From TPA_inf: Saccharomyces (taxonomy: Eukaryota), in assembly GCA_000146045.2 (NCBI GenBank), contig BK006937.2:252621-316620 (forward strand): a stretch of DNA of 64,000 nucleotides, in the 5' to 3' direction. This document shows positions 27,497 through 64,000 of this stretch, in pieces. The position numbers and the translations under genes are program-made. Each line of letters opens with the position of its first letter. The stretch's first letter is position 1. Below the pieces are notes generated by a model, which was not told the origin of the DNA, searched no databases, and worked only from the letters and a program-made list of their open reading frames with translations.

Positions 27497-30400
27497 ATGC
27501 TATCGGCCACATACCGTGATTTGAACACAGCATCTAATTTAGAAACATCAAAGGAAAAACAGGCCGCTCAAATCGTCATTGCACAAATTAGTTTATTATT
27601 CACGACTCTTAACAACGACAATTTTGAATCCGTGGAAAGAGAAATTAGACATATTTTAGACAGGTCGTCCGTAGATATTTACATAAAAGTTTGGGAACGA
27701 TTATTAACCTTAAGTTCTCGGGATATTTTACAAGCGGGAAAATTTTTACTTCAAGAAAATCTACTACACAGACTACTATTAGAATTTGCGAAGGATTTAC
27801 CGAAGAAAAGCACAGACCTTATTGAGCTTTTGAAAGAACGAACCTTCAATAACCAGGAGTTTCAAAAACAAACAGGAATTACATTATCACTTTTCATTGA
27901 TCTATTTGATAAATCTGCAAACAAGGACATTATAGAGTCACTTGACCGCTCCTCTCAGATTAACGATTTCAAGACAATTAAGATGAATCATACAAATTAT
28001 TTAAGGAATTTTTTTCTTCAAACCACACCAGAAACACTAGAGTCCAATCTACGCGACTTATTGCATTCCTTGGAAGGTGAAAGTCTAAATGACTTATTAG
28101 CTCTTTTACTGTCCGAAATACTTTCACCTGGGTCTCAGAATTTACAAAATGATCCCACACGGAGTTGGTTGACACCTCCGATGGTTTTAGACGCAACGAA
28201 CCGTGGGAACGTTATAGCAAGATCTATAAGTTCTCTGCAAGCCAACCAGATAAATTGGAATCGTGTGTTTAATTTAATGTCAACAAAGTATTTCTTGAGC
28301 GCACCATTGATGCCTACTACAGCATCTTTGAGTTGCTTATTTGCAGCATTGCACGATGGTCCAGTTATTGATGAATTTTTCAGTTGCGACTGGAAAGTTA
28401 TTTTCAAACTAGATTTGGCCATTCAACTTCATAAGTGGTCGGTACAGAATGGTTGCTTTGACTTATTAAATGCAGAAGGTACCAGGAAAGTTTCTGAAAC
28501 CATCCCAAACACAAAGCAATCTTTACTCTACTTATTATCCATTGCATCATTGAATTTAGAATTGTTCCTACAAAGGGAGGAATTGTCTGATGGTCCTATG
28601 CTAGCTTATTTTCAAGAGTGCTTCTTTGAAGATTTCAACTACGCCCCTGAATATCTTATTTTAGCATTAGTCAAAGAAATGAAGCGGTTCGTTTTATTGA
28701 TAGAAAACAGGACAGTCATAGACGAAATACTTATTACCTTATTGATTCAAGTGCATAATAAATCACCGTCATCGTTCAAGGACGTTATTTCTACAATAAC
28801 CGATGATTCTAAAATCGTAGATGCAGCAAAAATCATAATCAACTCGGATGACGCACCTATTGCCAACTTTTTAAAATCGTTGTTAGATACGGGAAGATTA
28901 GATACGGTCATTAATAAACTTCCTTTCAATGAAGCTTTTAAAATTTTGCCATGCGCAAGACAAATTGGTTGGGAGGGGTTCGATACTTTCTTAAAAACAA
29001 AAGTTTCTCCATCTAATGTCGATGTAGTGCTGGAATCACTAGAGGTTCAAACGAAAATGACTGATACAAACACTCCATTTAGGTCATTAAAGACATTTGA
29101 CTTATTCGCTTTTCATTCATTAATTGAAGTACTGAACAAATGCCCACTAGATGTTCTCCAATTACAAAGGTTTGAATCCTTGGAATTTTCCTTATTAATT
29201 GCATTTCCTAGATTGATCAATTTTGGTTTTGGACACGATGAAGCTATTTTAGCCAATGGTGACATCGCAGGGATTAATAATGATATTGAAAAGGAGATGC
29301 AGAACTATTTACAGAAAATGTATAGTGGTGAGTTAGCCATTAAAGATGTAATCGAACTTCTGAGAAGGTTAAGAGATAGCGACTTGCCAAGGGACCAGGA
29401 AGTCTTCACATGTATTACCCATGCCGTTATAGCAGAATCGACATTCTTCCAAGATTATCCATTGGATGCATTGGCTACTACATCTGTTCTTTTTGGATCC
29501 ATGATTCTCTTTCAACTGTTACGTGGATTCGTATTAGACGTCGCATTTAGGATAATCATGAGGTTTGCCAAGGAGCCTCCAGAGTCCAAGATGTTTAAGT
29601 TTGCTGTACAAGCTATTTATGCATTTAGGATACGTTTGGCCGAATATCCACAGTATTGTAAGGACCTCTTGAGAGATGTTCCGGCTTTGAAGTCTCAGGC
29701 TCAAGTTTACCAATCTATCGTCGAAGCTGCTACCCTAGCAAATGCTCCAAAGGAAAGGTCAAGACCCGTCCAGGAAATGATCCCATTAAAATTTTTTGCT
29801 GTAGATGAAGTTTCATGTCAGATCAATCAAGAAGGTGCTCCTAAAGATGTCGTAGAAAAAGTTCTTTTTGTTCTCAACAACGTTACTCTGGCTAACTTGA
29901 ATAATAAGGTTGATGAATTGAAAAAAAGTTTGACACCAAATTATTTTTCTTGGTTTTCCACATATTTAGTTACGCAAAGGGCTAAAACAGAACCTAACTA
30001 TCATGATCTTTATAGCAAGGTTATAGTTGCTATGGGGTCAGGGTTGCTACATCAGTTCATGGTCAACGTTACTTTGAGACAATTATTTGTCCTACTATCT
30101 ACAAAAGACGAGCAAGCCATCGATAAAAAGCACCTAAAGAATTTGGCTTCATGGTTAGGATGTATCACATTAGCTTTGAATAAACCAATTAAACACAAGA
30201 ATATCGCATTCAGGGAAATGTTAATCGAAGCTTATAAGGAAAATAGACTTGAAATAGTTGTGCCTTTTGTAACAAAGATTTTACAAAGGGCTTCTGAATC
30301 AAAAATTTTCAAGCCTCCAAATCCCTGGACTGTTGGCATATTAAAGCTGTTGATTGAGTTGAACGAAAAAGCAAACTGGAAATTAAGTTTGACTTTCGAA

Positions 30401-33400
30401 GTTGAGGTTTTATTAAAATCTTTTAATTTGACCACCAAATCTCTCAAGCCCTCGAATTTCATCAATACTCCGGAAGTTATAGAAACTTTATCCGGTGCTT
30501 TGGGATCAATCACTCTGGAGCAACAACAAACAGAGCAACAAAGGCAAATTATACTAATGCAACAACACCAGCAACAGATGCTAATATATCAACAGAGACA
30601 ACAACAACAACAACAAAGGCAACAACAACAACAACATCATATTAGTGCAAATACAATCGCAGACCAACAAGCGGCATTTGGCGGCGAGGGTTCAATTTCA
30701 CACGACAATCCTTTTAACAACTTACTTGGTTCTACTATTTTTGTAACCCACCCTGACTTGAAGAGGGTATTTCAAATGGCTTTAGCCAAGTCAGTTCGCG
30801 AAATTTTGTTGGAAGTAGTCGAAAAGTCATCAGGAATTGCTGTTGTTACGACGACAAAAATAATACTTAAAGACTTTGCCACTGAAGTTGATGAGTCTAA
30901 GTTGAAGACGGCTGCAATCATTATGGTAAGGCATTTGGCACAAAGTTTAGCTCGAGCTACTTCAATTGAACCATTGAAAGAAGGCATACGTTCTACTATG
31001 CAATCACTAGCACCGAATTTAATGTCTCTTTCTTCTTCACCTGCAGAGGAGCTTGACACGGCAATAAATGAAAATATTGGCATTGCTCTAGTTTTGATTG
31101 AGAAAGCATCTATGGACAAGTCTACTCAAGATTTAGCAGACCAATTGATGCAAGCGATTGCTATTCGTCGTTATCACAAGGAAAGAAGGGCAGACCAACC
31201 ATTTATTACGCAAAATACCAATCCATATTCACTGTCTTTACCAGAACCTCTTGGTTTGAAAAACACTGGTGTTACTCCTCAACAATTCAGGGTATACGAA
31301 GAATTTGGTAAGAATATTCCAAACTTGGATGTTATTCCGTTTGCAGGATTGCCCGCTCACGCTCCACCGATGACTCAAAATGTGGGTTTAACTCAGCCTC
31401 AGCAACAACAAGCGCAAATGCCTACCCAAATCCTAACCTCCGAACAAATAAGAGCTCAACAACAACAGCAGCAATTACAGAAAAGCCGTTTGAATCAGCC
31501 ATCCCAGTCGGCTCAACCTCCAGGAGTGAATGTCCCAAATCCTCAAGGTGGGATTGCTGCAGTTCAATCAGATTTGGAACAGAATCAACGTGTTCTCGTT
31601 CACCTCATGGACATTTTAGTTTCTCAAATTAAAGAAAATGCTACGAAGAATAACTTAGCTGAATTAGGCGATCAAAACCAAATTAAAACCATCATTTTTC
31701 AAATTTTGACATTCATTGCAAAAAGCGCACAAAAGGATCAATTAGCTTTAAAGGTATCCCAAGCTGTCGTTAATAGCCTTTTTGCCACTAGTGAGAGTCC
31801 TCTCTGCAGAGAAGTTTTGTCCCTACTTTTGGAAAAGTTATGTTCTTTATCCCTCGTTGCTAGAAAAGACGTTGTCTGGTGGTTAGTTTATGCCTTGGAC
31901 AGTAGGAAATTCAATGTTCCCGTTATCAGATCCCTTCTAGAAGTTAATTTAATTGATGCTACAGAATTAGATAACGTTTTAGTTACTGCAATGAAAAATA
32001 AAATGGAGAACTCAACTGAATTTGCTATGAAATTAATTCAGAATACTGTCTTGTCTGATGATCCAATTTTGATGAGAATGGACTTCATTAAAACCTTAGA
32101 ACACTTGGCCTCTTCGGAAGATGAAAATGTAAAGAAATTCATCAAAGAGTTCGAAGATACTAAGATAATGCCAGTGAGGAAAGGTACCAAAACCACAAGA
32201 ACAGAAAAGCTTTACTTAGTATTTACGGAATGGGTAAAATTACTTCAAAGAGTTGAGAATAACGACGTAATCACAACTGTTTTTATCAAGCAATTAGTCG
32301 AAAAGGGTGTTATCAGCGATACTGATAATTTACTTACATTTGTCAAAAGTTCTCTTGAGCTATCAGTTTCTTCATTCAAAGAAAGTGACCCGACTGATGA
32401 GGTTTTCATCGCTATTGATGCTCTAGGATCGCTAATTATAAAATTGTTGATTTTACAGGGTTTCAAAGATGATACAAGAAGAGATTACATAAATGCAATA
32501 TTTTCTGTGATCGTTTTAGTGTTTGCTAAGGATCATAGCCAAGAGGGTACCACATTCAATGAACGACCATATTTCAGACTATTTTCTAACATCTTATACG
32601 AATGGGCTACCATCAGGACGCACAATTTTGTTAGAATATCTGATTCCAGCACTAGGCAGGAGCTGATCGAATTTGATTCTGTATTTTACAACACTTTCTC
32701 AGGATATTTGCACGCTCTGCAACCATTTGCCTTCCCTGGATTCTCATTTGCATGGGTGACACTATTATCACACAGAATGTTATTACCAATTATGCTAAGA
32801 TTACCCAATAAAATAGGTTGGGAAAAGTTAATGCTTTTGATTATCGATTTGTTTAAATTTTTGGACCAATACACAAGTAAACATGCAGTCTCTGACGCTG
32901 TTTCGGTTGTTTATAAGGGAACACTGCGTGTTATTTTAGGCATTTCGAATGATATGCCATCCTTTTTGATTGAAAATCACTATGAATTAATGAACAATCT
33001 ACCTCCAACATATTTCCAACTAAAGAATGTTATTTTATCTGCTATTCCTAAGAATATGACCGTTCCCAACCCATATGACGTGGATCTTAATATGGAGGAT
33101 ATTCCAGCATGTAAAGAACTACCTGAAGTCTTCTTTGATCCTGTAATTGATTTACACTCATTGAAAAAGCCAGTTGACAACTACCTACGTATTCCCTCAA
33201 ATTCATTATTAAGAACAATACTAAGCGCTATTTACAAGGATACCTATGACATAAAAAAGGGCGTAGGCTACGACTTTTTATCTGTTGATAGTAAATTAAT
33301 TCGCGCTATTGTATTACATGTGGGCATTGAAGCTGGAATAGAGTATAAGAGAACTTCTTCAAATGCGGTATTTAATACGAAGTCTTCTTATTATACTTTA

Positions 33401-33823
33401 TTGTTCAATCTGATTCAAAATGGTAGCATCGAAATGAAATATCAAATTATTCTGTCTATTGTGGAACAATTGCGGTATCCAAACATCCACACCTATTGGT
33501 TCAGCTTTGTGTTAATGAATATGTTCAAAAGTGACGAATGGAATGATCAAAAACTTGAAGTCCAAGAAATTATTTTAAGAAACTTTTTAAAAAGAATTAT
33601 TGTTAACAAACCACATACCTGGGGTGTTTCAGTTTTCTTTACTCAGTTGATAAACAATAACGATATTAATCTTTTAGACCTGCCCTTTGTACAAAGTGTT
33701 CCCGAAATTAAACTAATTTTACAACAATTAGTAAAATATTCCAAAAAATACACAACCAGTGAACAAGATGACCAATCCGCCACCATCAATAGAAGGCAAA
33801 CCCCTCTACAATCCAACGCATAA
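27497..33823 (+). CDS. CDC39: Ccr4-Not complex scaffold subunit Not1
   Basis: 2108-aa ORF with a poly-Q region at about 30520-30650; length and sequence match NOT1. Confidence 0.95.
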   Translation: MLSATYRDLNTASNLETSKEKQAAQIVIAQISLLFTTLNNDNFESVEREIRHILDRSSVDIYIKVWERLLTLSSRDILQAGKFLLQENLLHRLLLEFAKDLPKKSTDLIELLKERTFNNQEFQKQTGITLSLFIDLFDKSANKDIIESLDRSSQINDFKTIKMNHTNYLRNFFLQTTPETLESNLRDLLHSLEGESLNDLLALLLSEILSPGSQNLQNDPTRSWLTPPMVLDATNRGNVIARSISSLQANQINWNRVFNLMSTKYFLSAPLMPTTASLSCLFAALHDGPVIDEFFSCDWKVIFKLDLAIQLHKWSVQNGCFDLLNAEGTRKVSETIPNTKQSLLYLLSIASLNLELFLQREELSDGPMLAYFQECFFEDFNYAPEYLILALVKEMKRFVLLIENRTVIDEILITLLIQVHNKSPSSFKDVISTITDDSKIVDAAKIIINSDDAPIANFLKSLLDTGRLDTVINKLPFNEAFKILPCARQIGWEGFDTFLKTKVSPSNVDVVLESLEVQTKMTDTNTPFRSLKTFDLFAFHSLIEVLNKCPLDVLQLQRFESLEFSLLIAFPRLINFGFGHDEAILANGDIAGINNDIEKEMQNYLQKMYSGELAIKDVIELLRRLRDSDLPRDQEVFTCITHAVIAESTFFQDYPLDALATTSVLFGSMILFQLLRGFVLDVAFRIIMRFAKEPPESKMFKFAVQAIYAFRIRLAEYPQYCKDLLRDVPALKSQAQVYQSIVEAATLANAPKERSRPVQEMIPLKFFAVDEVSCQINQEGAPKDVVEKVLFVLNNVTLANLNNKVDELKKSLTPNYFSWFSTYLVTQRAKTEPNYHDLYSKVIVAMGSGLLHQFMVNVTLRQLFVLLSTKDEQAIDKKHLKNLASWLGCITLALNKPIKHKNIAFREMLIEAYKENRLEIVVPFVTKILQRASESKIFKPPNPWTVGILKLLIELNEKANWKLSLTFEVEVLLKSFNLTTKSLKPSNFINTPEVIETLSGALGSITLEQQQTEQQRQIILMQQHQQQMLIYQQRQQQQQQRQQQQQHHISANTIADQQAAFGGEGSISHDNPFNNLLGSTIFVTHPDLKRVFQMALAKSVREILLEVVEKSSGIAVVTTTKIILKDFATEVDESKLKTAAIIMVRHLAQSLARATSIEPLKEGIRSTMQSLAPNLMSLSSSPAEELDTAINENIGIALVLIEKASMDKSTQDLADQLMQAIAIRRYHKERRADQPFITQNTNPYSLSLPEPLGLKNTGVTPQQFRVYEEFGKNIPNLDVIPFAGLPAHAPPMTQNVGLTQPQQQQAQMPTQILTSEQIRAQQQQQQLQKSRLNQPSQSAQPPGVNVPNPQGGIAAVQSDLEQNQRVLVHLMDILVSQIKENATKNNLAELGDQNQIKTIIFQILTFIAKSAQKDQLALKVSQAVVNSLFATSESPLCREVLSLLLEKLCSLSLVARKDVVWWLVYALDSRKFNVPVIRSLLEVNLIDATELDNVLVTAMKNKMENSTEFAMKLIQNTVLSDDPILMRMDFIKTLEHLASSEDENVKKFIKEFEDTKIMPVRKGTKTTRTEKLYLVFTEWVKLLQRVENNDVITTVFIKQLVEKGVISDTDNLLTFVKSSLELSVSSFKESDPTDEVFIAIDALGSLIIKLLILQGFKDDTRRDYINAIFSVIVLVFAKDHSQEGTTFNERPYFRLFSNILYEWATIRTHNFVRISDSSTRQELIEFDSVFYNTFSGYLHALQPFAFPGFSFAWVTLLSHRMLLPIMLRLPNKIGWEKLMLLIIDLFKFLDQYTSKHAVSDAVSVVYKGTLRVILGISNDMPSFLIENHYELMNNLPPTYFQLKNVILSAIPKNMTVPNPYDVDLNMEDIPACKELPEVFFDPVIDLHSLKKPVDNYLRIPSNSLLRTILSAIYKDTYDIKKGVGYDFLSVDSKLIRAIVLHVGIEAGIEYKRTSSNAVFNTKSSYYTLLFNLIQNGSIEMKYQIILSIVEQLRYPNIHTYWFSFVLMNMFKSDEWNDQKLEVQEIILRNFLKRIIVNKPHTWGVSVFFTQLINNNDINLLDLPFVQSVPEIKLILQQLVKYSKKYTTSEQDDQSATINRRQTPLQSNA

Positions 33824-34141
33824 AAAAACTGCATTTATTTATATACGAAAATCATGATTTCAGAAAAAAAAATATAACTTGTATAATACTATATTTCAGA
33901 GAATACTATTTTGAATAAGAATAGAAGCAATTTCGATTAACTTTTCTTACTGTATATGGGTCGCTTTCACTTTTGAACTACTGAAAATTAGTGTTACCCG
34001 TATTATTGTTTTGGAGAATAATAATAATAATGAGCATCAATTTATATCAAACAAGAGCTGCAATTACCTTATGTCCATGACGCACTGCGAACAAAGAATA
34101 ATTGAGTAATCGAACTTGAAGTTCTATAGAACAGCTTGTAT

Positions 34142-35317
34142 ATGGTTTCATTGTTCAAAAGAGGTAAGGCTCCACCGCTCACGAAAGAAGGCCCCACTTC
34201 TAAAAAGCCTCCTAACACAGCGTTTAGACAACAAAGGCTTAAGGCATGGCAACCAATACTGTCTCCTCAAAGTGTGCTTCCGTTGTTAATATTCGTTGCA
34301 TGTATATTTACTCCTATTGGTATTGGACTCATTGTAAGCGCTACTAAGGTACAAGATCTAACAATTGATTATAGTCATTGTGATACAAAAGCATCTACAA
34401 CTGCTTTTGAAGATATACCAAAGAAGTACATTAAATATCACTTTAAAAGTAAAGTTGAAAATAAACCACAATGGAGGCTAACCGAAAATGAAAATGGCGA
34501 ACAATCATGCGAACTGCAGTTCGAAATCCCAAACGATATCAAGAAATCCATTTTTATATATTATAAAATAACCAATTTTTATCAAAATCATCGCAGATAT
34601 GTCCAATCGTTTGACACAAAGCAAATATTAGGGGAGCCTATCAAAAAAGATGATCTGGATACAAGCTGTAGTCCAATAAGAAGTAGGGAAGACAAAATAA
34701 TATATCCCTGTGGGTTGATCGCTAATTCCATGTTTAATGATACATTTTCTCAGGTGTTGAGTGGTATAGATGACACAGAAGACTATAATTTAACTAACAA
34801 GCATATATCATGGAGTATTGATCGTCACAGATTTAAAACCACCAAGTATAATGCTAGCGATATTGTTCCACCGCCAAACTGGATGAAGAAGTATCCCGAT
34901 GGGTATACAGATGAAAATCTTCCTGATATCCATACTTGGGAAGAGTTCCAGGTATGGATGAGGACTGCAGCCTTTCCCAAGTTTTACAAGTTGACGTTGA
35001 AAAATGAATCTGCTTCTTTACCGAAGGGTAAATATCAAATGAACATTGAGTTGAATTATCCGATTTCACTCTTTGGTGGCACAAAATCATTTGTACTGAC
35101 TACAAATGGAGCTATTGGTGGTAGAAATATGTCACTAGGCGTACTGTACCTCATCGTTGCAGGGCTTTGCGCCTTATTTGGCATCATTTTTTTGGTTAAA
35201 TTAATCTTCCAACCAAGAGCGATGGGTGATCACACTTATTTGAATTTTGATGATGAAGAAAACGAGGATTATGAGGATGTACACGCAGAGAATACAACAT
35301 TGAGGGAAATTTTATAG
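34142..35317 (+). CDS. CDC50: Beta subunit of the Drs2 P4-ATPase flippase (Cdc50/Lem3 family)
   Basis: 393-aa ORF (391 aa from MVSLFKRG) with two transmembrane segments flanking a large lumenal domain. Confidence 0.9.
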
Positions 35318-35549
35318 AGGCCAAAAAACAAACTTTAGTGCCTGTAGGTATTTGTGTTTATAAGTAAACAAGTTTTGTTGACTTCCTGAAACGTAAACAA
35401 AAGAAAAATTGAAGTATGCCTTTTTACGCTTGGAAAATAGTGCGACAAAGAACTCCCAGGGTTTGCTATTCCCATTTAGATGATGAAATGATAGAAAAGT
35501 GGAAAACGTTTATCATGAAATCATCTATACATATACGTAAAAATGTAAA

Positions 35550-36638
35550 CTATGTAAAAATATGTTCCCTATAAAAGTGATGCTCTTCCGGAACGTTTTC
35601 TTTTTCCCACAAATCTCGTTGAAACCTGAACCAATCTGGTAATTCAGAATCACAGGGTATCCTTATTTTGACGTTATCTTTTCCCCTTGCTTTATAATAG
35701 CCATAATCTCCATTTTCTTTTTTATTAAATGCTAATCTATACCTATGGCCAAAAATTCCTAGGTCAGAAGAGGTTTTCTTCAAATCGTCTCCTAGAACTC
35801 CACTTACTTGTAATACTTTATTATTTTTCACTTTGGTTTCGATTTGATTTATTAATGTCAAAAGCCGCTGAGGCACTTCTGGCTCTCTGCAAAGGTCATC
35901 TTCATTTACTCTAATAAGTTTGCCAGAATTGGCCTTATACTCTATCGAATGCGTCCTATTATTCTCAAGGGGCAATTTTTTTGCTTTGTTGTCCACAATT
36001 GTCTTATTATCCTTCTCCTGTTCTATCTCAATGTTAATTATTTCTAGAAATGTTTCCGCAAAATAATTTCTATTCTTACCAGAAAATAATCTGTACTCAT
36101 TTATGATTGATGCAATATTCCATTTCTGAATTTTTCGAAGTATACCAATGACCAACGCGGTCTTATCTACCAATAAAACATTATAATTATCCACATTCAA
36201 TAATGTTTTGAAAGTTCTTTTTAAACACGTGCTCTTAATCAGCATTAAGTCATCATTGTCAGTCAAGTGGTAAGCCAATTCCTCCTGAATTACAGGATCC
36301 CCTGTAGTAGAATTTTGTGACCCATTTGCAGTGGATTTTTTCTTTTCTTCCTGTAATGATAGAGTACTGTTATTATTCGAATATAAATTTGCGTTAGATA
36401 CAGAAGAGCTTTTTACCGGAACTGCCGCAGCCGAGAAATCAGACATCCTTAAAACAATCCATTTTATGGATGATCTTGTGAAAAAATCTTTGAAAAACTT
36501 GGATGGTTCTTGACCTCCAATAAATATAGCTGTCTTTAAATTGAGAGTTTCCAGAAAGGATAAATTTAATGTCTCCACTTTAGAACATCTATATATTCCT
36601 TCTTCAGCAATCCCAAAGTTAGCAGGTGGAACCAGCAT
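35550..36638 (-). CDS. OCA4: Cytoplasmic protein-tyrosine-phosphatase-like (Oca family) protein
   Basis: 362-aa ORF lying convergent with CDC50. Confidence 0.75.
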   Translation of the reverse strand: MLVPPANFGIAEEGIYRCSKVETLNLSFLETLNLKTAIFIGGQEPSKFFKDFFTRSSIKWIVLRMSDFSAAAVPVKSSSVSNANLYSNNNSTLSLQEEKKKSTANGSQNSTTGDPVIQEELAYHLTDNDDLMLIKSTCLKRTFKTLLNVDNYNVLLVDKTALVIGILRKIQKWNIASIINEYRLFSGKNRNYFAETFLEIINIEIEQEKDNKTIVDNKAKKLPLENNRTHSIEYKANSGKLIRVNEDDLCREPEVPQRLLTLINQIETKVKNNKVLQVSGVLGDDLKKTSSDLGIFGHRYRLAFNKKENGDYGYYKARGKDNVKIRIPCDSELPDWFRFQRDLWEKENVPEEHHFYREHIFT

Positions 36639-37394
36639 TATGAATTCAGGTTATGGATCGCACCAGTGCTGTAAGTGTCTCTCTTTTTATTCTACGATCT
36701 CCATATAACAACCACATCTCATTTCTTTACCTTACTGTCCATTTAATGCTAGAAAACTTCCGAATATTGTATTATTATTACCCGGATATGTCAAGGCGGT
36801 ATATTAAGATGTTCCTTTCAAAAGTTTCATTATACCGCATACGGTAAGGACAGCCATAAGTAGTTTTACTGATAAAATATGGGGCTAAAGAACTGTATAT
36901 TTATGGATAGCACTAAAAGTAAAGATTTTCCCCGTGTCCTGACTTGGAGAAACAAAATTTCATTGTCATAAAAAACTTTTAAAATATGATATTCAAAGCT
37001 TGAGCATTGGGCTTCTGGATGACAGTTCTAATCAAGTTGGGTCTAAGGATATTGCATGTATACAAAGGATTCTTTCGGAAAGTAATCCTGAAATATTTTT
37101 TTTTTTCGTCTGAACATACGAAAGTAAATAAAAAAAGTTCAATGCATGCCTTCCTATGCAAGATTTATAAAAGGTGAACAGGTCAGGAGCAGCCACATCT
37201 CAATAAAGGCAGTTAAAGACGGTGATGTAGGTGCAGAAAGAGAAAGTGAACAAAGGATGATTTGAGATGTGTAATGATTCGTTTGAGCAGCAACAACTGC
37301 TAAGATATTCATACTAATAGGCCACTTCACACATTATGCCTTGGAGAATATCCTGCATTGCTCCTTTTATAGTATAGTCTATTCAGCACTAACA

Positions 37395-37590
37395 AGCAAA
37401 GCGAACATAATGGTAAAACTAACTTCAACTGTTGCTGGTGTCGCCTGCATCGCTGGCCCTCCCCTCCACTACGGCCATTTTAGCACAACTTGAATGAGTC
37501 AACTTGGTTGAGTTGCATGTTAACGTCTCTGATATCAGAGCTCACTTGCTCAATAATACATGTTACAAACTGCCCACTAAATTGAACACT
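37395..37590 (+). pseudogene. Degenerate relic of a PAU (seripauperin) gene
   Basis: atggtaaaactaacttcaactgttgctggtg... aligns with the PAU3 5' coding sequence and its leader (cagcactaacaa...ca atg gt[ac]aaa[ct]taacttcaa), including ...gtcaacttggt.gaatt.ggtgtt.acgtctc.gatatcagagctca.ttg.ctcaata.tac. It is interrupted by stop codons and frameshifts after about 27 codons. Confidence 0.6.
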
Positions 37591-38748
37591 CTAACATTAT
37601 ATTGACCTGAATTATTTGAAACGAAGTCAACAGAATGATCACTGATTTTCCAATGTACTCCGCTATGTTGAAGCTAGCCATCTTAAGCGATCAATGACGG
37701 TGCTCAATCATTCTTCGAAATGGGCTAAAAATGACAGTTGAAATATATTCTTTACGTTCATTTTTTTTCATACTGCAAACCCATTCTAGAACCAATGGTA
37801 AAAGTGACGGGAGTTGCTTTCTTTTACTATTTCAATGATAGCTATAGCCTGCATACACACAAAAGAATGTAAGTGATTGCGTGAAAGCTTAAAGTCTTAA
37901 AACTGTATTTTTTTCAACTCCTCCCATATATTAAACTGGTCCTCACAGTTCGCAGGATAACTAACAATTAAAAAAATTGTTCATATGGTTGTATTTCTTT
38001 CCGTCTCACATTATTAAAATTCAACGAAGAAGTTTCTACAATAACAGACAAGGGCCTACGATTACTATGTACTGGAAGGTGAGTCTTGAATTCATCCTCA
38101 GAGATTGTTCTAAAGACCAACAGAAATCCATATAGATTACCGTAGTTACTCTGATGGAATTTCAGAGTAAGACCCTTGTCAACTTCATCACTTTAAGTTG
38201 AGATGTAGAAAGACACTTTTGTAAGGTCTCCAACAAGTATATTTGATAAATAGACTGTTGAGCTACAAAAACTCAATGTGAAGTAAAAGACCTCATAAAT
38301 GATCGATTATCTGTTTGGCAGGTACTAATAAAACTGCATTGGTGTCTTTTTTCACTTACGTTAAAAAAAACTTTTTGCAATGATTTAAGCGTGCGTGAAG
38401 ATAACACTACAATCCATTTTAAAGCAACATCCACATTGAGTGTATACACCACAAAGGTTTTTTCAGGGCGTTTTTCTCGCCACTTTATGTTGACCAAAAT
38501 TATTAATGGAACTTACAACGTTTCCAAAAGTTAGTTAAATACATACGTCTATTTACTAAGCAAGAAATATATCATGACAAGCCCAAATATTATATTGTTA
38601 TGTTTACAAAAAAAAAATGGCTATATACATCAAGTCTGGAGGCTTTTTATAACAAGCAAGTGGGGTAACTTAGACATAAGATTGACTTCTTTGAATTCAA
38701 CAAAAATACATACTTTTGATGATTTCAATGGTAGAAGCAGTAGTAACT

Positions 38749-39092
38749 ATGCCGATGAAATAAAATCCTGATATCATCTATATAGTAGTACTCACGTTAC
38801 TAGTATATCATCTATAAGATGTAGGAAAATGTCATAAGAAATGAGAAACAGTCATTAAATTTAATGGAAACGAAATGCAAGGATTGGTGATGAGATAAGA
38901 TAATGAAACATAGAAAACGAAAGGAGAAATAACAGTAGTATTATTATTATTATTATTATGTAGAAATATTGACTCTCTCTTGTAGATTCATATATCTTCA
39001 AGGGGAACTTCTTGTACATTTTGTATACCTATATTATAGCGTTTAACAACAATGGAATCCCAACAATTACCAAAATTTTCACACATTCCTCA
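38749..39092 (+). mobile_element. Diverged solo delta (Ty1/Ty2 LTR)
   Basis: About 344 bp that align to the Ty1 LTR: ...acgttactagtata...aacgcaaggattg.t.atg...tgtagaaatat...caacaatggaatcccaacaatta...cacacattcctca. Confidence 0.65.
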
Positions 39093-39301
39093 TATAAAAT
39101 CTAAGCAATGACTAGAGAACTATCGCTAAATTATATAGAGCAAGGAAACCGAATAATTACATGTGTCAGATAAGAAAAAAATAAAGAAAACAACGCGTCA
39201 TGAAAAAGAGTTACTGAACCTTCAGATCCTACTTATTGTAATGCTTCGCGACATCCAATCCATTTAATAATCAATTTAAAACTAGAGTTGGTAGAGTTCC
39301 T

Positions 39302-39547
39302 TGTTGAACGTGATAACCCAAAAGCATAATACGAGTAATGTTTCAGTATTGCTATTATATGTTTACACAAGGAAAACATATAATAACAAACCTCTAATCC
39401 GGTAGTACTTAAGAAACTATAGTTTCTATGTACAAAAAGGTAACTATGTAATTCTTACATTTACATAACATATAGAAGGGTCCAATAAACTTACTAAACT
39501 TACTACCTTGTTGTATATAGGCTAGATCGTAATCCACTACGTCAACA
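39302..39547 (+). mobile_element. Solo LTR with TGTTGA...TCAACA termini, consistent with a Ty5 LTR
   Basis: A 246-bp element with terminal inverted repeats, immediately left of HMR-E. Ty5 is known to target silent chromatin. Confidence 0.5.
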
Positions 39548-39670
39548 TAAAAAAAACTTAAGGAGTTTGAATTTTATGTACAAACAGATTGTTAAAATAT
39601 AATATAAGATTATGGAAACGAACTTGCTCTAAAAAAAATTTAAAGTTTTATAAAATCCTCGCACTATCGC

Positions 39671-39908
39671 TGTTATACATGATGTCCCCAAAGCGTGTAC
39701 AAATAATTTTGTAGTATTGTATCGGTAATATCATACAAGAAGAAAATAGTTGCAAATCTCTAACCCACTAGTACTTAAAAAAACTGTAGTTTCAGTGCAA
39801 AAAAGTTTTAACATTACGTATCTTGTACCCTTTTTATTGCATATAGAAAGGTCAAATAATCCTTCACATCATGAAATATAAGCTAAATCGCATTTCTTTT
39901 CGTCCACA
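39671..39908 (+). mobile_element. Second, more diverged copy of the same LTR family, in direct orientation
   Basis: Aligns with 39302-39547, for example ctctaa.cc..tagtacttaa.aaaact.tagtttc and atatagaa.ggtc.aataa, and ends cgtccaca versus cgtcaaca. Confidence 0.4.
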
Positions 39909-40053
39909 TTTGCAAACAAAACTTTTCAATAATAATTTTATAAATAGTATCAATATATATATATATATATATATTTATTTGTTTACTTTTTCTATCAGTG
40001 TTTTCAATTTTTTATTAAACAATGTTTGATTTTTTAAATCGCAATTTAATACC

Positions 40054-40149
40054 TAAATATAAAAAATGTTATTATATTGCAAAAACCCATCAACCTTGAA
40101 AAAAAGTAGAAACGTTTTATTTAATTCTATCAATACATCATAAAATACG
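40054..40149. promoter_or_regulatory. HMR-E silencer (ORC/ACS, Rap1 and Abf1 sites)
   Basis: An ACS match, TAAATATAAAA (the complement TTTTATATTTA fits WTTTAYRTTTW), lies at 40054-40064. A Rap1-like AAACCCATCAACC lies at about 40083-40098 and an Abf1 consensus ATCATAAAATACG (RTCRYN5ACG) at 40137-40149. An (AT)n tract at 39953-39976 is adjacent. Confidence 0.7.
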
Positions 40150-40558
40150 AACGATCCCCGTCCAAGTTATGAGCTTAATCTTCCATAAAAATATTTGAAA
40201 GCAATAGATCATGTACTAAACTAAAATCAGGGAAATTAAGACTCCTTTTGAAGTAATACCTATTACTTACTAATACGTTTGAGAATAAGCGCAGGTACTC
40301 CTGGTTTTTGTTAAAACTACAAATTTATACTTAGCATTACGAAGATTCTCGATTCCGAAAAACAAAAATTTTATCGTCATATACAAATCTAGAAATTACC
40401 AGAGCTATCCATCTTGTTCAAGAAGGTAGGCGAGGACATTATCTATCAGTACAAACATCTTAGTAGTGTCTGAGGAGAGGGTTGATTGTTTATGTATTTT
40501 TGCGAAATATATATATATATATATTCTACACAGATATATACATATTTGTTTTTCGGGC

Positions 40559-40918
40559 TCATTCTTTCTTCTTTGCCAGAGGCTCACCGCTCAAGAGGTC
40601 CGCTAATTCTGGAGCGATTGTTATTGTTTTTTCTTTTCTTCTTCTATTCGAAACCCAGTTTTTGATTTGAATGCGAGATAAACTGGTATTCTTCATTAGA
40701 TTCTCTAGGCCCTTGGTATCTAGATATGGGTTCTCGATGTTCTTTGCAAACCAACTTTCTAGTATTCGGACATTTTCTTTTGTAAACCGGTGTCCTCTGT
40801 AAGGTTTAGTACTTTTGTTTATCATATCTTGAGTTACCACATTAAATACCAACCCATCCGCCGATTTATTTTTCTGTGTAAGTTGATAATTACTTCTATC
40901 GTTTTCTATGCTGCGCAT
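40559..40918 (-). CDS. HMRA2: Silent a2 ORF (the 119-aa C-terminal alpha2-homeodomain segment)
   Basis: The ATG at 40918-40916 gives [13 protein letters not shown]...[11 protein letters not shown]..., which is identical to the C-terminal part of the alpha2 homeodomain protein. The full open frame runs to 41176 (205 aa) and matches alpha2 from [11 protein letters not shown] onward. Confidence 0.85.
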
Positions 40919-41214
40919 TTCTTTGAGTAATACAGTAATGGTAGTAGTGAGTTGAGATGTTGTTTGCAACAACTTCTTCTCCTCATCACTAATCTTACGG
41001 TTTTTGTTGGCCCTAGATAAGAATCCTAATATATCCCTTAATTCAACTTCTTCTTCTGTTGTTACACTCTCTGGTAACTTAGGTAAATTACAGCAAATAG
41101 AAAAGAGCTTTTTATTCTTGATTTTTGTTCTTTCGGGGAAACTGTATAAAACTTCCAAAAAGGAAAAGTAAAACAATACATCTCCTTATATCAAAGAAAA
41201 TCAAGAAGGACAAC

Positions 41215-41701
41215 ATGGATGATATTTGTAGTATGGCGGAAAACATAAACAGAACTCTGTTTAACATTCTAGGTACTGAGATTGATGAAATCAATCTCAA
41301 TACTAATAATCTTTATAATGTATGTTTTCATTTCAAGGATAGCCTTTGAATCAATTTACTAACAATACTTCAGTTTATAATGGAAAGTAATTTGACTAAA
41401 GTAGAGCAACATACATTACACAAAAATATTTCTAACAATAGGTTAGAAATATACCACCACATTAAAAAAGAGAAGAGCCCAAAGGGAAAATCATCAATAT
41501 CACCCCAAGCACGGGCATTTTTAGAACAGGTTTTTAGAAGAAAGCAAAGCCTTAATTCCAAGGAAAAAGAAGAAGTTGCAAAGAAATGTGGCATTACTCC
41601 ACTTCAAGTAAGAGTTTGGGTATGTAATATGAGAATCAAACTTAAATATATCCTATACTAACAATTTGTAGTTCATAAATAAACGTATGAGATCTAAATA
41701 A
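41215..41701 (+). CDS. HMRA1: Silent a1 homeodomain gene with three exons
   Basis: Exons at 41215-41319, 41374-41619 and 41672-41701 give 126 aa plus a stop. Both introns have GTATGT donors, TACTAAC branchpoints and AG acceptors. The spliced product ends ...PLQVRVWFINKRMRSK, restoring the WFxNxR homeodomain helix 3. Confidence 0.85.
41320..41373 (+). other. a1 intron 1 (54 nt)
   Basis: GTATGT...TACTAAC...CAG. Confidence 0.8.
41620..41671 (+). other. a1 intron 2 (52 nt)
   Basis: GTATGT...TACTAAC...TAG. Confidence 0.8.
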
Positions 41702-41747
41702 ATTCGTTTTCAATGATTAAAATAGCATAGTCGGGTTTTTCTTTTAG

Positions 41748-41771
41748 TTTCAGCTTTCCGCAACAGTAAAA
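41748..41771 (+). other. HO endonuclease recognition sequence at the Ya/Z1 junction
   Basis: tttcagctttccgcaacagtaaaa matches the MATa HO site; it is kept uncut here by silencing. Confidence 0.7.
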
Positions 41772-42184
41772 TTTTATAAACCCTGGTTTTGGTTTTGTAG
41801 AGTGGTTGACGAATAATTATGCTGAAGTACGTGGTGACGGATATTGGGAAGATGTGTTTGTACATTTGGCCTTATAGAGTGTGGTCGTGGCGGAGGTTGT
41901 TTATCTTTCGAGTACTGAATGTTGTCAGTATAGCTATCCTATTTGAAACTCCCCATCGTCTTGCTCTTGTTCTCAATGTTTGTTTATATACTCATATTTC
42001 TATGTGTTTATACAATTGCTATTGTTTATATAATGTAGTGACATTTTCTCTTAATCTTATACTAATTTCTATGACATTTATATAAGAAGAGACTTATGAT
42101 CAACATAATTTTGCAAACTTTGAGAGAAATATGTCTTTCTACTGCGATAAAGTTATTATTTAGATTACATGTCACCAACATTTT

Positions 42185-42300
42185 CGTATATGGCGATATA
42201 ATTTATCATGTTTTGGTATGATAATTTAATTTTTAAAAAAACAAATTTAATTGACCTCATTAATTAATATTTATTAATACCTTTAAATGTTGAGGTAAAT
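42185..42300. promoter_or_regulatory. Putative HMR-I silencer region
   Basis: Lies between Z1 and the delta. It has an Abf1 consensus on the reverse strand (cgtatatggcgat = CGTN5RYGAY) at 42185-42197 and a 10/11 ACS match (atttaattttt) at about 42226. The assignment is positional and weak. Confidence 0.35.
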
Positions 42301-42382
42301 AGCTATTTTCTCTCTTCTTTTCCTTTAGTTGGAATTTGCACAAGAAAATGTTTTTCCACACACTTTAGCGTTTTTTCCTAAA

Positions 42383-42710
42383 TGTTGGAATAAAAAACAA
42401 CTATCATCTATCAACTAGTAGTCACACTACCAATGTGTTATCATTATACTGTGTTAAACAATGACATAAGGTATGAAAATTTGTCAACGAAGTTAGAGAA
42501 AGCTGGATGCAAGGATTGATAATGTGGTAGGAAAATGAAACATATAACGGAATGAGGAATAATCGTAATATCAGTATATAGAAATATAGATTCCCTTTTG
42601 AGGATTCCTATATCCTCGAGGAGAACTTCTAGTATATTCTATATACCTAATATTATTACTTTTATCTACAATGCAACCCCACAATAATATAAAAATTCAC
42701 CAATTCCGCA
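42383..42710 (+). mobile_element. Ty1 solo delta LTR
   Basis: Begins tgttggaata and matches the Ty1 LTR along its length (...ggaatgaggaataatcgtaata...gaggattcctatatcctcgaggagaacttctagtata...). It lies about 150 bp upstream of a tRNA gene, the classical Ty1 target window. Confidence 0.8.
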
Positions 42711-42863
42711 TCTGCAGATTACTTTCCTAAATTTGCATATAGAATTGTCAAGCGCAAATCCGACGTCGATTCCGCGGCGGATGGGTCATTCTAGGTCATT
42801 CTACCAATTTTATTTGAGACCAGGTTTATTCAACCGGTAACATAGAAATATTCATACAATTAA

Positions 42864-42936
42864 GCTTCTATGGCCAAGTTGGTAAGGCGCCACACTAGTA
42901 ATGTGGAGATCATCGGTTCAAATCCGATTGGAAGCA
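42864..42936 (+). tRNA. tT(AGU): tRNA-Thr (anticodon AGT)
   Basis: A 73-nt sequence, gcttctatggccaagttggtaaggcgccacactagtaatgtggagatcatcggttcaaatccgattggaagca, with an acceptor stem pairing GCTTCTA with TGGAAGC, a D-loop AGTTGGTAA and a T-loop GGTTCAAATCC. This gene is the known right-hand boundary element of HMR heterochromatin. Confidence 0.9.
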
Positions 42937-42943
42937 TTTTTTA
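42937..42943 (+). terminator. Pol III T-run terminator
   Basis: A run of six T's directly after the tRNA 3' end (ttttttatcac). Confidence 0.6.
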
Positions 42944-44428
42944 TCACGTTATTCGGTGACACCCAGGTTGCCGCCGCGTTCGCGTCCATCGTCATCTGAA
43001 AAATAATGAATATTAATGGACCTTGTGCCCCATAAAGGTTCCATGTTCCATAAGTCTTCAATAATACTTTTGTATATTAAATTTACCGTTATTCGGAGAT
43101 CTCTTACGGCTTATGATTTTCTTTACATTCCAGGCCGCCTTTTGATGACATTCAGTGCGTCACGACGCGAATAGGGCTTTGAAAGCCTTAATGTGGAGTA
43201 AATAAATATATGAATGCAATAAGTAAACATAAGACGAGTTCTTCTATATCCGGTGTACCTAATAATATAGATTTTGCCAACAATGGAATCTCATTACCCA
43301 TCCCAAGATAAAATATTGATCAAGGCATGGGCCACCAACATAGGAATACGCAAAATAGGATTGATATTTTTACATATTATATTATCTTTCTTCTTCTGTC
43401 TCAAATATAGCTCTTCTCCTATTTAAAAAATTATCAATTCTTGAATCTCAACTTCCATTAAATTTGATGATTGTTTCCCAATATCGATGTCATCTTTTTA
43501 CACTGTAAATTATAATTTACTAGGAACATGAATACTGATCAATGGATGATAGTTGATTCTTATTGCAATAAAAAGTACTTTCTAAGACGCTAGGACTTCT
43601 AAACACAGATATTATGAAAATGCCAAAAAATACAGAATATTTTCCTTCTTTTCACTATAACAAGTAGTAAGAAATTAAGCAATATGGTAATTTGAGCTTA
43701 TCAGATAAAAGATCCTGGTAGTCTTGCAAAGGTGTGAGTACTTTTGATGAAACTAAGTTTCAGCGCAGCTATTTCAATTTTGGAACCTTTAAAGAAAGTT
43801 TAATCGAAACATTGAACGATCCAAAGCACAACTTTGTAGCGGGAAGTCACAAACAAATATAAAAAGTGTTAATAAACTGCCATCCTATGTTAGAATTGTG
43901 AAACTTTTTGGACTAATAAAAGGTTTTCAACATGGTGTTCCAAAGCACTTATTTCTAGGTTAGCTATGGTAACGAGTTTTAACGTAATCAAAACAATATA
44001 CAATTCAAGATCTGTATCATTTACACTAACACACCCCATTTTAATAGAGCTGAGTACTTCCTACATTTCTTTTGCATATGATATCGCCACTGCATCATTT
44101 CTGTAGTCGTAAAATTTCCTTCTCATTAAGACACCGAAAATAGCTAAGGATTATAACAAAACAAACAAATGCTCAAACAAAACTTTTAGTAAATCTTTTG
44201 AAATGTAAAAGTTACTTAGAATAACTAAAAAAAAAATATTACGCTATACCATATATTTCCATTCCCAATTTTATCGTTTTATAATAATATTCAGTTTCAA
44301 GAACAATGAATATATTTCAAACATTACATGCACTCTTGGGAGTAAGCTGCATCATAATAAATTAAAATTAACGCTTTAGAAAAAGAAATTTTGAGGTTAA
44401 AGGATGGAGGAAGAAATCGATACCAATT

Positions 44429-45985
44429 TCAACTTTGATCGACCTGTCTGACTGAAATTATTTCTGCGTTTTTCTTACTACAATTAGTACCATTCTCTTC
44501 AACTTCAATAGTTCTAACCATTGATTCTTCATCTGTCTCATCAAATCCCATCTTACCAGTCCAGCCATTGGATACCAAATAGTTGTGAAATTCAACGTCT
44601 TGCTTCATTAAATCGCTTTCAAGAGAATGTGGAACAAAGAAATATGTAATAATGATACCAATAAGACCACAAATTGCAGCAATAATAAAAGTCCATCTTG
44701 CACCCAAATTATCCCTAATGGGTTGGAAACATTCGACGCCTACTACAGAACCGATTTTACCAGTCACAGCAGATAAACCATAGAAAACACCTCTAACAGC
44801 GGTTGCTGACGCTTCACTACTAATAACACCAAGCATATCACCTGGTCCAGCATTACCTAACATATTCATGAATGCGTAGAAGATAATAAACAAGGGGGTG
44901 ATTTTTTTCAATTGGTCGTACGCACATCCAATGATTAGACCAAAGATGATGTACCCAGAGAAACCAAACATCAACGTATATTTACGACCAATACGATCGG
45001 ACAGATAAGCACCAATTGGTACACCCAGTACAGCTAAAACTCCCAACAGTAAGTTCCACTCTGCCACTTTTACTAAATCATTTTGGTCCTTGATAACGGA
45101 ACTGATAATTGTTGAACTGAAAATACCATTTGGGAAGGTAACAAAATCATACATAAACCATGTACCACATGTACCAAGTAACCTTTTCCAATAAAATTTC
45201 AATGCTAGGAAATATGGTATATTTCTCTTGATTCTACCTTTTTCATAGACTTCTGTAGTAGCAGTCTTCCATCTAAAATAGAACACACTCAATGGCCAGA
45301 AGCACCCTATTGCAAAAACAGTCCTCCAGATCGCCTCTAAATGTTTTGTTCCTGAACAGATTTTGTAGACGATTAAAAAGATGATCGTAGCAAATGGACC
45401 ACCGAAGGCTAGTGGCAAATTTGTCACCATAACCAGGATACCACCTCTTTTGGTAGTGGTATATTCATTAGCAGACTCATTAGCACTTAATGTACTGGTA
45501 GGATATTCTGCACCAACACCAATACCTACCAAACCTCTCATAACTGTTAACATCCAAAACATGCCAGGTACAGTAGTACCGTGAGAGGCAGCACACAGAG
45601 CACTACCAATAACCAAGATAGCAGTGGCCACAAGGATACAAGATTTTCTACTATAATAATCAGCAGCGATACCCATAAAGAATTGGCCAAAAATAATACC
45701 AACTAGGGCTGCGTTGGAAACTCTAGTCGACACTTTTGAGCTATAGTTTTTCTTACCGTACTCCATAACAAAAACCTTGTTTAGCATACTCATTGAACCA
45801 TTTACGTAACCATCACTTATCAGAGCAAAACCGGACGCAATGATTGTAACTATGTTTTTCCATTTATCTTTCTTTGAGGTTTCAGTACGGGTTGCACGCC
45901 TCTCGGCATCATATTTTATTATTCTAGGATTAGTGTTCTCGTTCACTTCCTTCTCATTTACCGATGTGATATCTTTGTCTTCCAT
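44429..45985 (-). CDS. GIT1: Glycerophosphoinositol/glycerophosphocholine permease (MFS)
   Basis: 518-aa ORF with 12 predicted transmembrane segments and MFS sugar/phosphate-transporter motifs. Confidence 0.9.
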   Translation of the reverse strand: MEDKDITSVNEKEVNENTNPRIIKYDAERRATRTETSKKDKWKNIVTIIASGFALISDGYVNGSMSMLNKVFVMEYGKKNYSSKVSTRVSNAALVGIIFGQFFMGIAADYYSRKSCILVATAILVIGSALCAASHGTTVPGMFWMLTVMRGLVGIGVGAEYPTSTLSANESANEYTTTKRGGILVMVTNLPLAFGGPFATIIFLIVYKICSGTKHLEAIWRTVFAIGCFWPLSVFYFRWKTATTEVYEKGRIKRNIPYFLALKFYWKRLLGTCGTWFMYDFVTFPNGIFSSTIISSVIKDQNDLVKVAEWNLLLGVLAVLGVPIGAYLSDRIGRKYTLMFGFSGYIIFGLIIGCAYDQLKKITPLFIIFYAFMNMLGNAGPGDMLGVISSEASATAVRGVFYGLSAVTGKIGSVVGVECFQPIRDNLGARWTFIIAAICGLIGIIITYFFVPHSLESDLMKQDVEFHNYLVSNGWTGKMGFDETDEESMVRTIEVEENGTNCSKKNAEIISVRQVDQS

Positions 45986-46497
45986 TTTTTATCCTATTCT
46001 ATTTTTTTGATTATAAGCAAAAAGATCAACTCACGTCTGCGGCTGGTTGACTAGTCACAAGAAACAGATAATAAATACTGTAACGAACATCTGCTACAAC
46101 TACATTCATCGGGGTTTATATATTCACGAGTTTCCTACTTCATCCAGACACATTCTGGATGTCTTCCAGCAGATGTCCCTCATCAAAGAATTAAGATAGC
46201 CAGATTGAAAAACTAGGTTAACCAGAGAACTAAGTTAACTAATGTTGGAAAATAATCCTACGATACAGTGGACGGAATGCCCATATGCCTATATAATCAA
46301 TCCATGCTAAGGTGGGGGTCCAGTAAGGAAATTCATGAATATGAAGATAAATGTGGCACCAAACGGCAACGCGGAAGACCGTAGGATCCAATCATATAAC
46401 CCCTATTATTCTAACATCATTGCTGTTGGGTACAACATTCTACGCCGCTATTACTACGTGCTGCTTCTTTTGATTCTCTGCTTTCTTTACCGTCATG

Positions 46498-46597
46498 CAC
46501 GTGCGCCGCGAAAAGTATTAATCATGCGGACACTCTGGCATTTAGGGGATACTGTCAAAAAGACTATGCTCAATACTGTCATATTCATATGCACGTT
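46498..46597. promoter_or_regulatory. Candidate Pho4/E-box sites upstream of GIT1
   Basis: CACGTG at 46498-46503 and CACGTT at 46592-46597, about 500-600 bp upstream of the GIT1 ATG. GIT1 is phosphate-regulated. Confidence 0.3.
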
Positions 46598-52847: not shown

Positions 52848-53031
52848 GGTTTCTGGAATTGCAACTTGCCTGTTTGTAGGTTATATGTAATTGTCGTTGA
52901 TAATCTGTATTCAGCTTGCCATTTTATAGAATATGGTTAGAAGGATCTTAAGCTAGATAAAGAAAAAGAAAAAAATAGAAAAAAGCCTGCCCGCTTTATA
53001 AGAACTTTTCTCAATATCTGTTGAGGAACAC

Positions 53032-55180: not shown

Positions 55181-55555
55181 ATGGTCAAATTAACTTCAAT
55201 CGCTGCTGGTGTTGCCGCCATCGCTGCCGGTATTGCCGCTGCCCCAGCCACTACCACTCTATCTCCATCTGACGAAAGGGTCAACTTGGTCGAATTGGGT
55301 GTTTACGTCTCCGATATCAGAGCTCATTTGGCTCAATACTACTTGTTTCAAGCAGCTCATCCAACTGAGACCTACCCAGTTGAGATTGCTGAAGCTGTTT
55401 TCAACTATGGTGACTTCACCACTATGTTGACTGGTATTCCAGCTGAACAAGTCACCAGAGTCATCACTGGTGTCCCATGGTACTCCACTAGATTGAGACC
55501 AGCCATCTCCAGTGCTCTATCTAAGGACGGTATCTACACTGCTATTCCAAAATAG
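55181..55555 (+). CDS. PAU3: Seripauperin (PAU family) cell-wall protein
   Basis: 124-aa [20 protein letters not shown]...[17 protein letters not shown]..., which is the PAU consensus. A TATA box tataaatag lies at about 55083. Confidence 0.85.
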
Positions 55556-63899: not shown

Positions 63900-64000
63900 A
63901 GTGTGTGGGTGTGGGTGTGTGGGTGTGGTGTGTGGGTGTGGTGTGTGTGGGTGTGGTGTGTGGGTGTGGGTGTGTGGGTGTGGTGGGTGTGGTGTGTGTG
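63900..64000 (+). repeat. Terminal telomeric TG1-3 repeat tract
   Basis: Irregular (TG)1-3 TGGG repeats, gtgtgtgggtgtgggtgtgtgggtgtggtg..., run to the end of the window with no Y' element. Confidence 0.95.

Follow-up and report, generated by a model that had tools for sequence, protein, structure and literature searches.

Genes and features distal of OCA4

The window analyzed here, a stretch of 64,000 nucleotides from the right arm of Saccharomyces cerevisiae chromosome III, extends to the real chromosome end, where it closes with a terminal TG1-3 telomere tract (63902..64000, forward strand). The last syntenically conserved core gene on the way to the telomere is OCA4 (35550..36638, reverse strand; 362 aa, 99% identical to S. 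cerevisiae Oca4p), orthologs of which are present in all species examined; on its centromere side, the list of open reading frames contains ORFs of 2108 aa (27497-33823) and 393 aa (34136-35317). The ORF pattern, the Oca4p match, a single tRNA-Thr(AGT) gene and the telomere tract together show the window to be the terminal 64 kb of the arm. Distal of OCA4, the same list contains no ORF of 80 aa or more between 36638 and 40559, and none of more than 50 codons that overlaps the feature of main interest here, the decayed copy of a PAU (seripauperin) gene at 37272-37701 (forward strand), which is transcribed divergently from OCA4, 772 bp apart from it. An ORF of 52 codons (37019..37177, forward strand), which we take to be YCR095W-A of SGD, lies within the former PAU upstream region. 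Of the 1.9 kb that had been flagged as an ORF-free zone with a PAU relic when the sequence was first read, only ~430–640 bp are accounted for by the relic; the segment beyond it (37702-38750) yields nothing recognizable in Rfam and Pfam scans and is alignable only to S. paradoxus, and six small ORFs examined in the flagged interval have no Pfam match.

Next on the chromosome is a degenerate solo delta LTR of the Ty1/2 type (38756..39093, forward strand), 69% identical to the LTR at 42386-42711. This element is absent at the orthologous site of S. paradoxus, where its flanks map 46 bp apart, which identifies it as a later insertion in the S. cerevisiae lineage; the LTRs had been cited in support of the proposal that this neighborhood was once a chromosome end. 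The HMR cassette region follows, with approximate limits 39916..42245, and is recognized by homology to the HMR regions of S. paradoxus and S. eubayanus; the segment 40412-42011 is 84% identical to the former and 92% identical to the latter, and gene calls with a homeodomain fall at the matching positions. The gene beyond HMR is not the same in S. cerevisiae and S. paradoxus as in S. eubayanus. A single tRNA-Thr(AGT) gene (42864-42936) was the only match in an Rfam scan of 36600-43200. The nearest intact paralog of the relic is PAU3 (55181..55555, forward strand; 124 aa, identified as an ORF, by tblastn and by a PF00660 score of 90.9 bits), at a distance of 17.8 kb.

A decayed PAU gene and its earlier record

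The presence of a PAU relic upstream of OCA4 is borne out by several sequence comparisons. In a blastn search, the segment 37272-37652 aligned with PAU3 and its leader (55039-55441), with 66.6% of the 407 columns identical (E = 2e-38), and a tblastn search with PAU3 as the query matched 37410-37688 in two frames. An nhmmer search with a profile made from the DNA of three intact PAU ORFs matched the window at 37410-37701, covering profile positions 1-351 of 375 (E = 1.4e-40). Chance similarity to PAU is ruled out by E-values of 1e-38 to 1e-40. The match thus extends well beyond the leader: once a 42-nt deletion (14 codons; junction 37586/37587) inside the relic ORF is allowed for, a MAFFT alignment carries the homology to the end of the PAU ORF, so that the relic spans codons 1 to ~118 along with ~140 nt of leader. 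The sequence-only reading had recognized the leader and the first ~60 codons, an underestimate; the second half of the ORF is hidden because of this internal deletion.

Two parts of the former gene can be delineated. The decayed promoter and 5' leader (37064..37409, forward strand) are defined by homology to the PAU3 upstream region and to the positional ortholog in S. kudriavzevii (see below), and the decayed ORF (37410..37701, forward strand) by the nhmmer match, a frame-aware translation, the PF00660 score and a previously published pseudogene record. In the reading frame of PAU3, the ATG and the start of the signal peptide, MVKLTS, are preserved in the relic; the frame-aware translation then reveals five in-frame stops, the earliest of which is a TGA at 37495-37497, and at least four frame breaks in addition to the 42-nt deletion. 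The TATA region is mutated as well, reading TCATACTAATAGG, where the copies of S. kudriavzevii and S. arboricola have TCATATAAATAGGG and PAU3 has GGTATAAATAGAG. A TCGTT motif located ~130 nt upstream of the ATG, which resembles Upc2 sites, is invariant in all five aligned copies. The frame-corrected translation of the relic scores 24.5 bits against PF00660 (E = 2.9e-5), slightly short of the cut-off of 25, whereas the relic of S. paradoxus described below scores 70 bits and intact copies score 91–96 bits.

The relic shares with PAU3 (YCR104W) and the 24-member PAU family (PF00660, SRP1_TIP1), a yeast cell-wall family of small genes, the leader, the MVKLTS start, the domain order and the short length, with 67–70% DNA identity to PAU3; it differs from the members of the family in lacking an open frame and in the mutated TATA region. 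The homology stops at the PAU stop region, as expected of the short form without the Ser/Thr-rich region; this form, of ~120–124 aa, sets PAU apart from DAN/TIR/TIP (PMC9551191). The relic is a homolog of the PAU family across the coding region, but has no uninterrupted ORF and, combining similarity to a functional gene with disabling mutations, is a pseudogene in the sense of Lafontaine & Dujon.

Window coordinates are converted to those of chromosome III by adding 252,620, which we take to be the offset in SGD coordinates. With this offset, the relic coincides with SACE0Cp1, a pseudogene that was catalogued in 2010 by Lafontaine & Dujon (BMC Genomics 11:260, Table S1; PMC2876123) at chrIII 289925-290306, W strand, that is, at ~37305-37686 of the window, with the PAU gene YPL282C as the best match. 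The offset is corroborated by the fact that all five chromosome III entries of the pseudogene table fall on fitting features of the window. The catalogued properties of SACE0Cp1 (relative length, R.L., 0.88; nucleotide divergence, D.N., 0.31; 5 stops and 3 frameshifts; PMC2876123) compare well with those obtained here (30–33% nucleotide divergence, five stops and at least four frame breaks), and the two are the same object. The relic is, accordingly, an already published pseudogene and of a familiar type. Synteny is not covered in the catalogue entry for SACE0Cp1, and the catalogue's "Conserved or Duplicated" column is blank (PMC2876123) because that study included no other Saccharomyces species. 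The other pseudogenes of the chromosome III-R subtelomere (the VTH-like YCR099C-YCR101C and the COS-like and YAL067W-A-like relics) belong to the same class, all being decayed copies of subtelomeric multigene families within the last ~27 kb of the arm. The PAU relic differs from them in being the innermost pseudogene of chromosome III-R; it alone lies proximal to HMR.

The OCA4-linked PAU locus in other Saccharomyces

We compared the DNA around the OCA4 orthologs of S. kudriavzevii, S. arboricola, S. paradoxus, S. eubayanus and one further relative (L006). Two of these genomes carry an intact PAU gene at the corresponding site: the S. kudriavzevii subgenome of VIN7 (AGVY01000152.1; positions 8849-9223 of locus L003) encodes a 124-aa PF00660 protein that is 92% identical to Pau3p, and S. 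arboricola H-6 (CM001565.1; positions 8821-9192 of locus L001) has a PAU ORF of 123 aa. The two genes, with PF00660 scores of 92–96 bits and ~92% identity to Pau3p, are divergent from OCA4, in the same orientation as the S. cerevisiae relic, and start at nearly the same distance from the OCA4 ATG (778 bp in S. kudriavzevii and 809 bp in S. arboricola, compared to 772 bp for the relic ATG). The identity between them is 89.5% in the ORF and 74% upstream, a difference which suggests that these orthologs are under constraint. Further along the chromosome, S. arboricola has an assembly gap at the position of HMR followed by the same tRNA-Thr gene; on the S. kudriavzevii VIN7 contig, neither HMR nor the tRNA-Thr gene was found within 10 kb.

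Positional orthology is also apparent from the flanking DNA. The window is homologous to the S. kudriavzevii locus from 37064 onward, a point 426 nt away from the OCA4 ATG, whereas homology to the PAU3 upstream region begins only at 37272, ~200 nt further downstream. The additional ~200 nt shared with S. kudriavzevii argue for positional orthology rather than an independent insertion of PAU DNA.

The genome of S. paradoxus CBS432 is collinear with the window through this region and contains its own dead PAU copy, in which the ATG is changed to AAG, 2 nt are inserted, 16 nt are deleted and 5 stops are present. The 42 nt that are missing from the S. cerevisiae relic are still present in S. paradoxus, and the two relics have no stops in common. 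One lesion is shared by the two species, a 1-nt deletion at 37547/37548, after codon 49 ("DIRAH"). This deletion is situated in a GG dinucleotide, where a double origin is possible. Within S. cerevisiae, the divergent strains CQS_1a and HN1 have the relic with the same major lesions.

No trace of PAU was detected between OCA4 and HMR in S. eubayanus by tblastn, sensitive blastn and nhmmer --max searches, and none was found in this interval in L006. In S. eubayanus, OCA4 and HMR are 3.9 kb apart, and the interval shares no alignable sequence with the other species; because the interval is so diverged, loss of the gene in this species and its original absence are indistinguishable.

That S. paradoxus, S. 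kudriavzevii and S. arboricola each have a gene or a relic at the site bears directly on the suggestion that HMR received subtelomeric DNA by ectopic recombination. A recent event of this kind, by which ectopic recombination or gene conversion would have put subtelomeric PAU DNA beside HMR in S. cerevisiae, draws on the frequent reshuffling of subtelomeres, including chr03-R, in this species (bioRxiv 10.1101/076562), but has a negligible probability given that the relic is only 67–70% identical to the paralog within the window and at most 72% identical to any PAU gene examined, that the orthologs and relics of the three other species come with common flanking homology, notably to S. kudriavzevii, and that the lesions are fixed in divergent S. 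cerevisiae strains. The positional orthologs and the divergence together refute such a transfer as a recent event. An ancient transfer of a PAU gene in the ancestor of the genus cannot be separated from the reading that the gene was resident at the site.

Subtelomeric position, decay and loss

The relic is located 26.6 kb from the telomere, its ATG being 26,590 bp from the telomeric end of the window. Lafontaine & Dujon count the terminal 30 kb of every chromosome arm as subtelomere (PMC2876123), and Yue et al. place the HMR locus within the synteny-defined chr03-R subtelomere (bioRxiv 10.1101/076562). Being less than 30 kb from the end, and with HMR counted as subtelomeric, the relic, which is proximal to HMR, thus lies within the present chromosome III-R subtelomere, the innermost point of which it marks. 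The proposal made for this locus withstands the observations that were to refute it, as the alignment to PAU does not stop at the short leader and a gene or relic occurs in related species. The association with subtelomeres that it invokes holds insofar as the territory distal of OCA4 is subtelomere-like; the idea of a "fossil" end does not, with the relic only 26.6 kb from the present telomere. The accompanying premise that PAU genes are strictly subtelomeric is overstated as well, since they are described as "mostly" subtelomeric (PMC9551191).

In its explicit form, the fossil-end proposal holds that the OCA4-HMR interval is a former telomere or subtelomere that was internalized by the distal addition of HMR and of what is now the terminal 25 kb, the PAU relic being what remains of it. 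Several features of the region would fit such a history. The distal side of OCA4 coincides with a break in the ancestral gene order, with a different neighbor in each genus examined: BRE5/POP2/NOG2/ESF2-like genes come next in Z. rouxii and L. thermotolerans, and other genes follow in K. africana and N. dairenensis. In the latter two species, the Pfam content of the OCA4 neighbors resembles that of genes elsewhere on chromosome III-R, suggestive of inversions. Furthermore, all five catalogued chromosome III pseudogenes lie within the last ~27 kb, with the PAU relic in the innermost position, and the substitution rate jumps exactly at the 5' end of OCA4. Against these observations, the window contains no interstitial TG1-3 tract or X-element remnant outside the real end, and a comparison of the terminal 1.2 kb with the rest of the window gave low-complexity matches only. 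The relic belongs to the present subtelomere by both published definitions, and the DNA distal of it consists of HMR, a tRNA gene, LTRs and genes of subtelomeric families, without any core gene, so that nothing need have been "internalized." The OCA4-PAU-HMR order, moreover, is already seen in S. arboricola, if the assembly gap that is followed by the same tRNA-Thr gene is taken as the position of HMR. We consider a former chromosome end at this site to be very unlikely, and the idea of a fossil subtelomere is unnecessary: what is observed is ordinary birth-and-death gene loss.

The relics of S. cerevisiae and S. paradoxus share 66% identity, and each is 68–76% identical to intact copies, as predicted by mostly independent decay from an intact ancestor. 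Between these two species, the relic ORF is 67% identical and the adjoining non-coding DNA is 61–74% identical, a range that covers all the non-coding DNA distal of the OCA4 ATG, compared to 82–83% in two intergenic regions proximal of OCA4. The relic thus evolves like its non-coding surroundings, free of constraint. The divergence of the relic region matches the hyper-divergence to the left of HMR reported by Teytelman et al. in 2008 (52% identity, against a genome average of 80%; PMC2570616), a paper in which the relic is not mentioned. The relic could serve as a convenient neutral marker of the accelerated substitution rate beside HMR.

Taken together, these observations lead us to assign a probability of about 0.9 to the reading that the relic is what remains, functionless and decaying neutrally, of a resident PAU gene that was disabled around the time of the S. 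cerevisiae/S. paradoxus split. The OCA4-linked PAU gene, intact in S. kudriavzevii and S. arboricola and disabled in S. cerevisiae and S. paradoxus, goes back at least to the ancestor shared by S. cerevisiae, S. kudriavzevii and S. arboricola; this ancestor, rather than that of the whole genus, is the earliest one for which its presence at the site is demonstrated. The gene would have resided at the centromere-proximal edge of the chromosome III-R subtelomere, lying 0.77 kb upstream of OCA4, from which it was transcribed divergently. Its inactivation can be placed around, and probably just before, the S. cerevisiae/S. paradoxus split, after which each lineage would have acquired stops, frameshifts and deletions of its own, with the decay proceeding at the unusually high rate of substitution that is typical of the HMR flanks. 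The relic, which presumably has no function at present, would be one of the many losses in the birth and death of the PAU family. PAU genes are confined to Saccharomyces, with 9–24 per species and "many loss events" (Krause & Hittinger 2022, PMC9551191). As such, the relic carries little weight beyond bookkeeping and is in line with what is known of birth and death among PAU genes; what the present comparison adds to the record of SACE0Cp1 is that the loss is unitary, in that S. kudriavzevii and S. arboricola retain an intact gene at this position, and that it can be dated to about the S. cerevisiae/S. paradoxus split.

A more speculative extension, which we regard as improbable, is that the OCA4-proximal PAU gene was the oldest positionally stable locus of the genus, an "anchor" or founder for the subtelomeric amplification of the family, and that its loss was hastened by the mutagenic, Sir-silenced flanks of HMR. 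At least four species have the locus at a conserved position, in a family whose other genes reshuffle; in S. eubayanus, the locus is not detectable.

As for a present role, the relic might have been co-opted, either to provide the ORF at 37019-37177 with a promoter or 3' region, to act as a non-coding RNA or to form part of the left boundary of the silenced HMR domain. Such a role gains some appeal from the invariant TCGTT motif and from the growth and mitochondrial phenotype in mucin medium reported for the deletion of YCR095W-A (PMC8527512), but the relic has no Rfam match, and the frame of the small ORF is broken in S. cerevisiae strains CQS_1a and HN1 as well as in every other species (S. 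paradoxus, S. kudriavzevii and S. arboricola), so that co-option in any of these forms seems extremely unlikely. The small ORF is unconserved even within S. cerevisiae. The deletion removes DNA that lies 381–539 bp upstream of the OCA4 ATG, and an effect on the neighboring gene would be the simpler reading of its phenotype. The orphan ORF YCR095W-A is therefore to be interpreted with caution, sitting as it does in the former promoter of a dead PAU gene.

Sequence features of the former PAU upstream region

Examination of alignment A2, which includes the PAU relic, its S. paradoxus counterpart, the intact orthologs from S. kudriavzevii and S. arboricola, and PAU3, identifies a TCGTT motif (columns 30-34; window ~37279-37283), located some 130 nt before the PAU ATG, that is invariant in all five copies. 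The motif, a candidate Upc2/Ecm22 site, resembles the core of the anaerobic/sterol response element found in DAN/TIR/PAU promoters.

The former PAU upstream region also encompasses a 52-codon open reading frame on the plus strand (window 37019-37177; 381-539 bp from the OCA4 ATG), presumably the one annotated in SGD as YCR095W-A. In the S. cerevisiae strains CQS_1a and HN1 this ORF is disrupted by 1-nt indels, and S. paradoxus, S. kudriavzevii and S. arboricola either lack it or have it interrupted; it is therefore either very young or spurious. Deletion of YCR095W-A has been reported to produce a mucin-growth and mitochondrial phenotype, and the same study states that this gene has no homologs anywhere (PMC8527512); the deletion phenotype may reflect a neighbouring-gene effect on OCA4.

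Pseudogenes, repeats and divergence around HMR

In the catalogue of Lafontaine and Dujon, all five chrIII pseudogenes fall within the terminal ~27 kb of the arm on the right, and their coordinates map onto window positions 37305-54968 (PMC2876123, Table S1). Besides the PAU relic, they comprise a BUD5 fragment within HMR, the VTH-like YCR099C-101C and two further relics, one COS-like and one YAL067W-A-like (PMC2876123, Table S1).

Comparison of window positions 33824-39900 with the S. paradoxus CBS432 locus (L004) reveals a sharp step in divergence that coincides precisely with the OCA4 5' end: the intergenic identity between the two species is 82-83% proximal of this point and 52-74% distal of it. 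This step is consistent with the published acceleration of substitution around HMR.

Two LTRs flank HMR. The one on the left, a solo delta LTR (window 38756-39093), is missing from the orthologous site in S. paradoxus, its flanking sequences mapping there 46 bp apart; the one on the right (window 42383-42711), which adjoins the tRNA-Thr gene, also occurs in S. paradoxus (L004 3271-3601). In addition, a diverged direct repeat (39302-39606 and 39671-39965; 65% identity over ~317 columns, E = 3e-20) lies immediately to the left of where the HMR region starts, or overlaps that start.

Gene order distal of OCA4 in other yeasts

In the S. kudriavzevii subgenome of VIN7 (L003 1-8848), HMR and tRNA-Thr are both missing within 10 kb distal of OCA4/PAU, their place being taken by a fragment of an LTR together with a gene for a GRE2-like reductase (712-1755); this arrangement could be a real rearrangement or an assembly collapse.

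An OCA4 homolog containing a frameshift is present in a 2771 bp Logan contig (SRR31481541), which is about 80% identical at the DNA level to each of the Saccharomyces species compared and is collinear with S. eubayanus, including the upstream non-coding region; no PAU sequence was found in this contig.

The gene block MSH3-CDC39-CDC50-OCA4 is kept in N. dairenensis (L009) and K. africana (L010). Distal of OCA4, the Pfam content of these two loci is like that of other chrIII-R genes (SSK22/ERS1/FUB1-like; THR4/CTR86/PWP2/YIH1/TAH1-like), which suggests independent inversions with a breakpoint on the same side of OCA4.
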